From assembly GCA_037440825.1 (NCBI GenBank), contig JBBITJ010000016.1:1-10405 (forward strand): DNA of 10,405 nt, given 5' to 3'. This document shows positions 2,713-9,652 of this stretch, piece by piece. The notes beneath the pieces are model-generated. The model had not been told where the DNA came from. It saw only the letters and a program-made list of their open reading frames with translations, and made no database searches. A program made the translations under genes and the position numbers. This DNA comes from Candidatus Micrarchaeota archaeon. Lineage in GTDB: Archaea; Micrarchaeota; Micrarchaeia; Anstonellales; Bilamarchaeaceae. How positions within the stretch are numbered: position 1 is the stretch's first letter; every line of letters begins with the position of its first letter.

Positions 2713-2732
2713 TTCTTTTTTAAACTCTTTTT
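2713..2732 (+). terminator. Oligo-T tract(s) after rpoD (archaeal-type terminator), overlapping a TTTAAA TATA-like element
   Basis: TTCTTTTTTAAACTCTTTTT directly after the rpoD stop codon. Confidence 0.55.
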
Positions 2733-2751
2733 ACGTAGTCAATCAATAAAT

Positions 2752-2964
2752 GCGTCCAGAACTTCTGAACGCCTATGCAAGGGTGGCAGCGCTATGCAAG
2801 CCATTTCCCTGCATCATGAACCGTAAGGTTCCAGGTCTCCAGTCGCCAGTTGCGACTGTCTCGAAAAGTTGCGTGGCAACTTTCCGATCGGGTTTCCAGT
2901 TTCGTCGTCACGGAACGGGGGACAGAAGACAAGAACCACAGGCGTGTTCAAAACTCGGAACACG
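2752..2964. ncRNA. Candidate structured non-coding RNA or long structured leader of the tRNA pair (family unknown)
   Basis: Seven nearly back-to-back stem-loops found by eye, including GAACC-GTAA-GGTTC (GNRA loop), CAGTCGC/GCGACTG, AAAGTTGC/GCAACTTT and CGTGTTC/GAACACG. No convincing coding frame. Confidence 0.55.
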
Positions 2965-2982
2965 AAACACATAACATTTCTT

Positions 2983-3068
2983 GCAGGGGTGGCGGAGCCC
3001 GGTCAAACGTGCTAGCTTGAGGGGTTAGTGGCCTAGCGCCTGCGCAGGTTCAAATCCTGCCCCCTGCA
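2983..3068 (+). tRNA. tRNA-Leu(GAG)
   Basis: Acceptor GCAGGGG/CCCCTGC, discriminator A; anticodon arm CTAGC-TTGAGGG-GTTAG (GAG at 3019-3021); long variable arm; T arm GCAGG-TTCAAAT-CCTGC; CCA not encoded. Confidence 0.96.
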
Positions 3069-3079
3069 ATTTTTCTCAC

Positions 3080-3150: not shown

Positions 3151-3155
3151 TCAGA

Positions 3156-3204
3156 AGAACCAGGGGAAACTTATTTTCTGATATCTTGCGTTTCCCCCAG
3201 TTCT
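3156..3204. repeat. Inverted repeat / stem-loop between the convergent tRNA-Gly and sufU
   Basis: AGAAC-CA-GGGGAAAC (3156-3170) vs GTTTCCCC-CA-GTTCT (3190-3204), 19-nt loop. Confidence 0.65.
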
Positions 3205-3272
3205 CTTTACATTCCCGCCTCCCTTCCAATCACGGTCGCTACGCTCCCTGGCATTTCCGCTGTAAAAATAGA

Positions 3273-8359: not shown

Positions 8360-9652
8360 CTACCTCCACTTTACTTTCAAAAAGTTGGTAGCGCAGCTCA
8401 TGCAGGGATCGTACGCCCTTATGAGCATCTCCATGCCCCTCTTTATCTCGTCCTTATTCGCCCCTGCATCCAGCTTCTCCTGCACCACCTGCCCCAGATC
8501 CCTCTCCATTTTCACTTGGTTTTGCGCCGTAGGTATGACCAGATTGGCGTATTCTATCTGCCCTCCGCTGTTCGTTATTATCTTATGGTAAAGCAGCCCC
8601 CTCGGAGCTTCAACAACCCCTATTCCGACGCCCTTCCGTATCTGCGCCTTCTGCACAGGCTCCTGTTTGAATTCCATCGTTTCGAGCATCTCTATCGAAA
8701 CATCTATTCCGTGCACAATTTCTATTGCCTGCGCCACGTTATTGTCGAACATGTTGAGCGACGGAAAACGCCCCAGGTATTTCTTCACGTCTTTCTTCGT
8801 TTCCCTGTGGAGCGCCCTCTTGTTGTAATTCATCCTAGCCAGCGCGCCAACTATGTAAGGCTTGTCCTTGTAGGTGAATCCCCTAGCTTGCGAATAAGGT
8901 ATGACCACCTTTTCCAGGTAATGGTCGAACGCGCTTTTGAGTATGCATCCCTGCCCGTCCCCGCATATTTCCCCCTGCACGTAATCGTAATCGTCATTGG
9001 TGAGCGCAACGAAATAGGTGTCGGATTTGAGCTTGAAATCCGCATTAGCGAATATCTCTATGAATTCCAGCGCGGCTTCCCTCACCTTCTTCAGCTCGGC
9101 TATGCTCTTCTTCACGTCCTCGTTCGTGGGCACCCTGAGGAATCCGCCCACCAATGGAAGAGGGGAGTGGATTGCCCTCCCTCCTATCATGGTCGCGAGC
9201 CTGTTCCCCGCGCCCTTCACTTCGAACGCCTTGTGGAGCAGCTCATGCTGGCTTTCGTCGAATTCCAAAACCGAGTCCTTGTTGAAATAATCCGGAAGGC
9301 AGAATAGATAGAGGTGCATTGCATGGTCCCTTATGTACGTGCCGTGCATGAGCAGCTTCCTCATATCCACGGTCTGCTCGCTCGGAACCAGCTCGAACGC
9401 GTTCTCCACGGCTTCTATTGACGCGAGCATGTGCGCCACGCTGCACGTTCCGCAAATCCTCGAAAGAGTTTGAGGCGCAGCGAGCGCATGCTTCCCTATT
9501 ATTGCCTCACTGAAGAACCTCTTGTTCTCGCTTATCACCAGCTTGGCGTCCTTCACCTTGCCTTTTTGCACCTTCACTTCGAGCTCGGCATGGCCCTCTA
9601 TCTTGCTCAGGTCCTCCACGCCTATGGAGAAATCAGCGTCAACTTCATGCAT
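8360..9652 (-). CDS. [NiFe]-hydrogenase large subunit, group 3 (3b-like)
   Basis: KIEGH, RICGTCSVAH, GGRAIH, VGALAR, EAPRGLLYH, PTAQN, RAYDPCMSC: all four Ni-binding Cys present; 430 aa as for group 3b alpha subunits. Confidence 0.95.
   Translation of the reverse strand: MHEVDADFSIGVEDLSKIEGHAELEVKVQKGKVKDAKLVISENKRFFSEAIIGKHALAAPQTLSRICGTCSVAHMLASIEAVENAFELVPSEQTVDMRKLLMHGTYIRDHAMHLYLFCLPDYFNKDSVLEFDESQHELLHKAFEVKGAGNRLATMIGGRAIHSPLPLVGGFLRVPTNEDVKKSIAELKKVREAALEFIEIFANADFKLKSDTYFVALTNDDYDYVQGEICGDGQGCILKSAFDHYLEKVVIPYSQARGFTYKDKPYIVGALARMNYNKRALHRETKKDVKKYLGRFPSLNMFDNNVAQAIEIVHGIDVSIEMLETMEFKQEPVQKAQIRKGVGIGVVEAPRGLLYHKIITNSGGQIEYANLVIPTAQNQVKMERDLGQVVQEKLDAGANKDEIKRGMEMLIRAYDPCMSCATNFLKVKWR

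Follow-up and report, generated by a model that had tools for sequence, protein, structure and literature searches.

What is the run of hairpins that fills the gap between rpoD and a pair of tRNA genes in a Candidatus Micrarchaeota archaeon? The stretch in question, positions 2752-2964 of contig JBBITJ010000016.1 (contig C16 of assembly GCA_037440825.1), had been described from its letters as an orphan structured RNA of about 215 nucleotides (nt). We analyzed it within the window, by which we mean the whole 10,405 nt of DNA at hand, within the source genome (G000; 875 kb in 45 contigs, 95.6% complete) and against related genomes. Our reading, to which we give a probability of roughly 0.6, is that 2752-2964 is the 5' leader (~230 nt) of a tRNA-Leu(GAG)/tRNA-Gly(TCC) transcript, pieced together from three types of module, and that it is no discrete RNA gene. 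Computation established the anatomy of the stretch, its non-conservation as a unit, the statistics of the repeat, and that an element before tRNA-Leu genes, which we call LLE, exists and covaries.

In the proposed account the hairpins, numbered H0 to H6, would have different origins. H0 and H1 together would be a diverged upstream copy of an ancestral unit made of a leader hairpin and a tRNA-Leu 5' end, H5, H6 and H0 would consist of a 7-nt repeat found genome-wide, arrayed in inverted or direct order with the AAC ends facing the gene, and H2-H4 would be young, species-specific palindromes. Transcription would begin ~25 nt past a conserved TATA box, pass through H0-H6 into tRNA-Leu and tRNA-Gly, and end near an inverted heptad hairpin at 3163-3197. 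A cut by ribonuclease P (RNase P) at position +1 of tRNA-Leu would then free the leader, which as a unit would require no function of its own, its modules being recurrent ones.

Anatomy, conservation and setting of the hairpin stretch

All seven helices of the original prediction were read in the sequence where it had placed them, along with its repeat CTATGCAAG at 2773 and 2792 and its two crossing long-range pairings. The minimum-energy fold of 2752-2964, computed with ViennaRNA, recovers H0, H1, H3, H4, H5 and H6; H2 is seen on folding 2815-2890 alone, the longer fold pairing its GGTTC with GAACC at 2931-2935. The comparison with shuffled sequences that had been suggested as a check came out in favor of structure on both strands: the plus strand folds at -79.4 kcal/mol versus -63.8 +/- 5.0 for shuffles (z -3.12; 2 of 200 shuffles as good) and the minus strand at -86.5 kcal/mol (z -5.00; 0 of 200). 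H2-H4 alone give z scores of -3.95 (plus) and -5.46 (minus). The parts of the stretch are as follows.

2752-2772, plus strand: H0, hairpin of two heptad units (CCAGAAC, TTCTGAAC), from the fold; collinear with the first post-TATA hairpin of G004 and G005
2775-2814, plus strand: H1, acceptor-stem mimic, from the fold; positioned like the intact LLE of G005
2818-2831, plus strand: H2, 5-bp hairpin with GUAA loop and a rival pairing to GAACC at 2931-2935, from the fold; no homolog in 40 relatives
2840-2858, plus strand: H3, perfect 7-bp palindrome, lineage-specific, from the fold; absent from the G004 and G005 leaders
2861-2887, plus strand: H4, hairpin of 11 bp and a single A.C mismatch that becomes G.U on the minus strand, lineage-specific, from the fold; absent from the G004 and G005 leaders
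2892-2923, plus strand: H5, inverted heptad units (GTTTCCA GTTTCGT, then GGAAC GGGGGAC), from the fold; the G004 leader is arranged alike
2910-2936, plus strand: degenerate GRAAC-type heptad run (GGAAC, GGGGGAC, AGAAGAC, AAGAAC), read in the sequence; holds the variant at 2918 described below
2943-2964, plus strand: H6, 7-bp hairpin, start of a conserved tRNA-Leu leader module, from the fold and the match to the G005 module
2948-2975, plus strand: heptad array in GRAAC sense (AAAAC, TCGGAAC, ACGAAAC, ACATAAC), stopping 7 nt short of the tRNA; called as an array at 2948-2968

As a unit the stretch lacks conservation. When 2700-2985 was searched as DNA against 40 relatives, no full-length homolog came back, only partial matches of 33-37 nt, in G005 and G019; a second partial copy lies inside the source genome itself, on contig C31. 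RpoD was located in 38 of 41 genomes, and a tRNA-Leu start stands behind rpoD in 22 of the 30 loci fetched, with spacers of 10-320 nt, so that the rpoD-tRNA-Leu synteny is old and the spacer fluid. In the leaders of G000, G004 and G005 a TATA box is followed by a heptad hairpin and a tRNA-Leu-5'-like 13-mer, after which the three diverge; all that the leaders of the two closest species have in common with the window is the promoter-proximal hairpin, this 13-mer and the heptad repeats. H2-H4 have no counterpart in the G004 and G005 leaders or elsewhere among the sequences searched.

The downstream part of the leader has closer relatives. H6, the following spacer and the tRNA start (2941-2997) match a leader module of G005 in 46 of 57 aligned columns, with a compensatory GC-to-AU change in the hairpin stem, and a paralogous module stands before tRNA-Glu(CTC) on contig C31 of the source genome. 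In G005 the module precedes not the tRNA itself but an element of ~80 nt that opens with the tRNA's own first 13 nt. H0 is a diverged copy of the module that recurs at H6: taken together with the 13-mer at 2777-2789, it is far more diverged, scoring 6 versus 33 for G005 against H6. The claim that the ~215 nt form a single undescribed noncoding RNA (ncRNA) is accordingly not supported, given a unit missing from the 40 relatives and from the G004 and G005 leaders and three hairpins (H0, H5 and H6) that belong to a genome-wide repeat; "orphan" is apt for the whole unit and wrong for its parts.

Contigs of four DNA runs were compared with the window. Run X1, of source-like DNA, covers the locus fully; its contigs break to 61-72 nt across 2886-2969, and a G>A change at 2918, at low depth on one short contig, hints at strain variation in the heptad region. 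Run X2 holds a relative with 250 nt where the window has 342 nt between 2639 and 2982.

The stretch lies between transcription signals and stable-RNA genes. An archaeal operon rps13-rps4-rps11-rpoD, identified by Pfam search of the window's open reading frames (ORFs), occupies 400-2712 on the plus strand and precedes it, and a convergent nifU/cysteine desulfurase/sufC operon lies 3' of tRNA-Gly. The flanking features are these.

2714-2724, plus strand: T-run and TATA-like box right behind the rpoD stop codon, read in the sequence; its core TTTTTAAA occurs in each of the 6 rpoD-tRNA loci of the genus that were aligned
2750-2974, plus strand: 74-amino-acid (aa) ORF from the ORF list, rejected as a gene; no Pfam family or conserved relative
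2983-3068, plus strand: tRNA-Leu(GAG), intronless; covariance-model score 49.7 bits
3080-3150, plus strand: tRNA-Gly(TCC); covariance-model score 69.3 bits
3153-3207 (also given as 3163-3197), no strand assigned: inverted heptad hairpin GGGGAAAC ... GTTTCCCC separating tRNA-Gly from the convergent nifU, read in the sequence

The segment 2714-2724 is likely both the terminator of the rps13-rpoD operon and the promoter of the tRNA unit. The TTTAAA reported at 2719-2724 is present, in a box that is invariant in the six same-genus loci, and a transcription start is predicted near 2748-2751. The inverted heptad hairpin is probably the 3' boundary of the tRNA unit. With the stretch lying between an invariant TATA-like box and the tRNAs, a co-transcribed leader released at tRNA 5' processing, as had been suggested, is the natural reading; the stand-alone ncRNA status attached to that suggestion is what lacks support. 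Elsewhere in the window, a 430-aa ORF at 8360-9652 (minus strand) has as its best Pfam match the large subunit of Ni-dependent hydrogenase at residues 51-139, aligned to positions 7-95 of the 508 in the profile; altogether two stretches match.

That no known RNA family is represented was borne out by the covariance models of Rfam 15, those for tRNA, SRP, RNase P, C/D and H/ACA sRNAs included, which gave nothing inside 2752-2964 at gathering score or at E<=10; within the window only the two tRNAs matched, with chance-level matches overlapping the tRNAs or lying 3' of them. Signal recognition particle (SRP) RNA and RNase P RNA were rejected as identities for the stretch: they map to contig C17 (E 2e-17) and contig C9 (E 3.5e-19, 67.9 bits), respectively, both below the Rfam cut-off.

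LLE, a structured element before tRNA-Leu genes

The ~80-nt element of G005 has counterparts elsewhere. A near-identical copy precedes tRNA-Leu(TAA) on contig C18 of the source genome, and a DNA search found more copies in G001, G005 (two), G007 and G107, all before tRNA-Leu genes with differing anticodons. We call this two-armed, structured element, which lies directly upstream of tRNA-Leu genes, LLE. From 5' to 3' it consists of a 13-mer that repeats positions 1-13 of the tRNA, a variable hairpin of 7-9 bp, the complement of positions 9-13, a second hairpin, and at its 3' end CAAG and the complement of tRNA positions 1-7, followed by a spacer of 11-16 nt (TCACTKCGTTC type) and then the tRNA. 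LLE is thus an acceptor-stem mimic and a D-stem mimic with two hairpins. A covariance model, R1, was built from six founder copies.

L047:217-298, minus strand: LLE founder copy, contig C18 of the source genome
L060:1503-1592: LLE founder copy
L050:225-314, minus strand: LLE founder copy
L049:1497-1586: LLE founder copy
L051:1502-1593: LLE founder copy
L052:1464-1553: LLE founder copy

Founders score 74-98 bits against R1 and true copies overall 26-98 bits, versus merely 12-14 bits for genuine tRNA-Leu genes. At E<=1e-3 the model finds LLE in 28 of 99 family genomes and 12 of 23 genera, and at E<=1e-4 in 22 of 151 genomes of the order; by family, at the latter threshold, it is present in 16 of 73 genomes of f1, 2 of 42 of f6, 1 of 3 of f7, 2 of 3 of f8 and none of the other seven families. 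For the alignment, 25 of 30 fetched loci were used, five weak or off-type ones being omitted, and 23 copies passed E<=1e-5. Among these 23, 92.9% of cells pair versus 76.4% in shuffles, a value reached by 0 of 500 shuffles, in an alignment fitted to the R1 model, which favors its own structure. Both sides change in 18 of 28 pairs, double changes occur in 99 cells versus 26.7 in shuffles, and slid controls pair at 33-46%.

The link to the downstream gene is close. The first 13 nt of LLE are identical to those of the following tRNA in 21 of 23 copies, and the 13-mer tracks the tRNA in 14 of the 15 loci whose tRNA deviates from the majority 13-mer. For 11 of the 23, ARAGORN calls a tRNA-Leu immediately downstream, with anticodon gag, tag, taa or cag; the other 12 have no ARAGORN call, and their downstream genes look interrupted by inserts on reading. 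No isotype other than Leu adjoins LLE downstream in the ARAGORN calls at these 23 loci. The tRNA starts 80-98 nt from the first base of LLE in 18 copies and 101-160 nt from it in the other five. An AT-rich box is centered 31-43 nt upstream of about 10 of the 23 copies and two more copies lie behind the 3' end of a different tRNA, which suggests that LLE lies inside a transcribed leader. LLE-type copies adjoin tRNA-Leu(GAG) in genera g12, g18 and g32.

LLE has no Rfam match at E<=1, and it scores as a tRNA in no search. A decaying full tRNA was rejected as its origin: the interior of the G005 element holds no residual tRNA-Leu similarity, 488 of 500 shuffles scoring equally high. Acceptor mimicry upstream is not a general feature of tRNA genes, with such mimics before 3 of the 41 tRNA calls of the source genome (1.8 expected) and exact 8-mers before 4 of 41 (2% in mismatched controls). 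An intron that would span the stretch between the 13-mer copy and the 13-mer of the tRNA itself was also rejected, in this case by inference. Bulge-helix-bulge (BHB) introns have, at their two junctions, a pair of 3-nt bulges with a 4-bp helix between them; the BHB reading is doubtful because upstream of the would-be 3' junction the exon end is repeated rather than complemented, and because the mismatched 13-mer of the window, or the one-base-shorter 13-mer of contig C18, would yield a faulty tRNA.

H1 shares part of this pattern. Its 5' strand (2777-2789) equals the tRNA-Leu 5' 13-mer at 11 of 13 positions and its complement stands at 2800-2803 and 2807-2812, giving a P1-type pairing (ATGCA-GGG with CCC-TGCAT, one bulged A). 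It is also placed as an LLE would be, on the same strand, on the promoter side of tRNA-Leu and collinear with the intact LLE of G005. A 5' copy and its complement occur in hairpin order at 5 of 22 rpoD-tRNA-Leu loci, the window included, versus a shuffle mean of 0.075 and maximum of 2. Hairpin 1, P3 (AATCGCC/GGCGATT type) and the spacer TCACTKCGTTC were not aligned by R1 in H1, and the sequence immediately before the window's tRNA is a heptad array rather than an LLE spacer. By this comparison H1 looks like a decayed LLE remnant.

Several observations concern other tRNA genes and their leaders. In five loci (L011-L015, from G001, G002, G003, G006 and G007) the rpoD-linked tRNA-Leu(GAG) carries inserts in the T-loop and/or D-loop, by reading; in G000, G004 and G005 (L008-L010) it is uninterrupted, and the same three genomes are rich in the heptad repeat. 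Before tRNA-His(GTG) at C8:~17000-17071 of the source genome stands a mini acceptor-mimic hairpin (a near-copy of the tRNA 5' end, a P3-like hairpin and the complement), followed by a 15-nt spacer almost identical to one before tRNA-Leu(GAG) of another genus (G010, L016); as a mobile motif this spacer was rejected, with just one good copy in the source genome. A third leader module, composed of a G-run, AAATCAAGGAAAAACC or TATCAAGGAAGAAGG, and a C-run and ending in TATGAGGTTTGTC or GAGAAGCCCCCT, lies directly before various tRNAs: in the source genome at C18:~15690-15765 (minus strand), before tRNA-Ala(CGC) on C13 and before tRNA-Asn on C3, and in G001 before tRNA-Leu(GAG) (L011). Finally, the ARAGORN labels tRNA-Pyl(CTA) and tRNA-Stop(TTA) in the source genome (C1:82988-83108, C39:174-294 and C1:83444-83536) fall on intron-containing genes probably mistyped through misplaced introns; the C1 and C39 copies are nearly identical.

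The heptad repeat NSRRAAC

The pairing of H0, H5 and H6 is owed to inverted runs of a 7-nt repeat, NSRRAAC. Arrays were defined as at least three RAAC cores spaced 6-8 nt apart. The source genome holds 152 arrays of at least three units versus 5-9 in shuffled genomes, and 77 of at least four units versus 0 in each of five and of three shuffled genomes; the spacing is 7 nt in 225 of 242 array steps. Examples are C7:26914-26969, C33:4392-4447, C5:39248-39343 and, in the window, 2892-2975 and 3153-3207. In the window an array is called at C16:2948-2968, with degenerate units at 2756-2770 and 2892-2936 by reading. Copy number swings widely within the genus: G000, G004 and G005 have 71, 76 and 56 exact matches to the four-unit pattern, versus 1-11 in each of the five remaining genomes. 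At least one four-unit match is present in 21 of 24 f1 genomes versus 2 of 16 in other families, and G020 and G034 also count among the array-rich genomes. A reversed-pattern control gave 0-2 matches per strand per genome.

Array placement is related to gene ends. On a crude ORF map, by which 90% of the genome is coding, 31 of the 77 arrays are strictly intergenic, and many others lie at ORF edges. Within 100 nt upstream of the 41 tRNA calls there are 8 GRAAC-sense arrays (the window's included) versus 1 GTTY-sense, and within 60 nt downstream 7 GTTY-sense versus 1 GRAAC-sense, with 0.44 expected per class. The SRP RNA and RNase P RNA genes are also trailed by GTTY-sense arrays. After protein ORFs, 10 of 14 GTTY-sense arrays begin 0-5 nt from the stop codon, and GRAAC-sense arrays before ORFs cluster 2-17 nt from the start codon. 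In close inverted pairs (<=35 nt) GTTY comes first and GRAAC second in 8 cases, versus 1 in the opposite order. Heptad arrays were found inside tRNA introns too.

Candidate roles for the arrays are a U-rich termination or 3'-end signal (read as GUUY) and a selfish repeat resembling repetitive extragenic palindromes (REPs). Pairing between a gene's own leader and trailer was not supported, consecutive convergent array pairs being no more complementary than random ones (-23.3 versus -24.0 kcal/mol). In a single case, noted by reading, a segment of 19 nt that precedes the SRP RNA promoter can pair with one just past the RNA's 3' end at 18 of 19 positions, two of them G.U (C17:16676-17096).

Rival readings, known systems and significance

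Several results weigh against the leader reading or its parts. The minus strand folds better than the plus strand, and H2-H4, very stable and unexplained, might still have a species-specific function. The close subclade comprises only three genomes, and a metagenome scan with RpoD yielded 4 loci at 45-49% identity, all from distant relatives. Duplication within the window (2713-2940 versus 2941-3075) gave a best local alignment of 12 nt, reached by 24 of 300 shuffles and so not significant alone. With filters off, R1 assigns H1 (2777-2821) only 4.3 bits, E 0.31, which is not significant, and the H1 13-mer is off by two positions, whereas 21 of 23 true LLEs are identical; H1 is read as a decayed LLE because of its position and its acceptor-mimic pattern, not its model score. 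Transcription, its promoter and strand, the route of processing and an LLE ancestry for H1 are inferred. A broader interpretation, which we hold as tentative, is that H1 could be a decayed copy of an undescribed, order-wide, tRNA-Leu-specific LLE acting in cis on pre-tRNA-Leu, as a three-strand toggle or as a handle for RNase P or tRNase Z, and that the heptads could be lineage-specific punctuation (a terminator or processing mark) bracketing stable-RNA and many protein genes and filling introns.

The alternatives fare less well. One structured, species-specific ncRNA of ~215 nt, released by RNase P and acting in trans, would account for folding that significantly beats shuffles, for the perfect stems of H3 and H4, for a promoter-like box at the right distance and for the lack of a known family; we nevertheless consider it unlikely, given the absence of the unit from 40 relatives and from the orthologous G004 and G005 leaders, and three of the seven helices being generic heptad hairpins that recur genome-wide, with inverted pairs at other intergenic sites. 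Slightly less probable still is a working LLE-type toggle at H1, where the C-rich strand 2807-2812 would pair with either the mimic strand or the tRNA-Leu 5' strand and gate folding or RNase P processing. H1 does contain both a sequence close to the 5' strand of tRNA-Leu and the complement, CCCTGC is fully complementary to tRNA positions 1-6 whereas a bulged A is needed against the mimic strand, and in intact LLEs the mimic strand, the complement and the tRNA 5' end co-vary. The conformational switch of the original prediction finds some support in the minimum-energy fold of leader plus tRNA, which swaps partners in this way, and is weakened by the frequency of that fold in the ensemble (0.0003). 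H1 moreover lies ~170 nt from the tRNA, whereas 18 of 23 intact LLEs end within some 15 nt of it; it lacks hairpin 1, P3 and the conserved spacer motif; and co-transcriptional folding would favor the local hairpin.

That the palindromes act as DNA or on the minus strand, as protein sites or as a terminator or barrier against the convergent sufC-csd-nifU operon, strikes us as improbable. The z scores (-5.00 minus, -3.12 plus) and the A.C mismatches that become G.U on the minus strand speak for it, as do heptad arrays in both orientations around genes and in intergenic gaps without an obvious RNA role. A terminator scan, of bacterial type where the host is archaeal, flags H0 on the minus strand, but this is 1 site versus 1.0 expected. 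Two tRNA genes and the inverted hairpin (3163-3197) separate nifU from the element, and array orientation at stable-RNA genes is polar, 15 to 2, as one would expect of a polar or transcript-level signal more than of a symmetric DNA site. Least credible by far is a small leaderless protein encoded by the 74-aa ORF (2750-2974), whose ATG, ~26 nt past the TATA-like box, would suit a leaderless archaeal mRNA. Its frame crosses hairpins and heptad repeats unrelated to codons, it has no Pfam family and no counterpart at the syntenic site of G004 or G005, and its best match among 98 other genomes of the family, at E 0.0015, is broken by four internal stops. Purifying selection on this ORF had been named as grounds for doubting an RNA; without a credible relative in those 98 genomes, the stretch is taken as non-coding.

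The leader reading invites comparison with known systems. Archaeal pre-tRNA leaders, which RNase P removes, are usually short. The window's leader is like them in its position between promoter and tRNA +1, its lack of coding capacity and its variation between species, and the genome has an RNase P RNA gene; it is unlike them in its ~230 nt and in being composed of recurrent modules (LLE remnant, heptad arrays) rather than unstructured sequence. Bacterial REPs and bacterial interspersed mosaic elements (BIMEs) are extragenic palindromes. The heptad arrays resemble them in being short, abundant and intergenic, often in inverted pairs at gene ends, with copy numbers that swing between related species. 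Unlike REPs and BIMEs, they are tandem 7-nt units polar towards genes and present also in tRNA introns, not a single imperfect palindrome.

For LLE two other precedents come to mind. In Haloferax volcanii a tRNA-like structure upstream of 5S rRNA is cut by tRNase Z (Holzle et al. 2008, cited in PMC3296008). That handle and LLE are alike as tRNA-mimicking folds immediately 5' of a stable RNA and possible nuclease handles, LLE having an acceptor-like stem followed after 11-16 nt by the tRNA. They differ in that LLE precedes a tRNA instead of an rRNA, copies its own tRNA's 13 nt (21 of 23) and has two arms rather than a cloverleaf, and its cleavage is only putative. Fragments of tRNA 5' ends remain beside tRNA genes after integration of mobile elements (Sugahara et al. 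2012, PMC3293823). The likeness lies in a duplicated tRNA 5' piece upstream of an intact copy and in a patchy distribution (LLE in 28 of 99 genomes), and the 13-mer direct repeats could likewise permit precise loss of the element. The LLE repeats, however, span only 80-90 nt with no recombinase gene between them, and the LLE interior is conserved with compensatory changes over at least 12 genera and holds the complement of the duplicated piece. The element cannot be placed in any of these known systems. The literature searched gave no description of LLE or of the heptad arrays; most subscription journals lay outside its coverage, so an earlier description is possible.

The window's own element is a species-specific leader of modest interest, and LLE and the heptad arrays are the more interesting regularities. 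For annotation, both generate spurious ORFs and "orphan ncRNA" calls. LLE precedes tRNA-Leu genes of four isoacceptors (GAG, TAG, CAG and TAA) and follows the 5' sequence of each tRNA base for base. In Micrarchaeota, a lineage known for disrupted tRNA genes, it provides a concrete example, open to testing, of a cis element linked with how one tRNA isotype matures or how its genes turn over. The heptad repeat marks gene boundaries in a polar way, and it may be a termination or processing signal in organisms whose transcription signals are unmapped.

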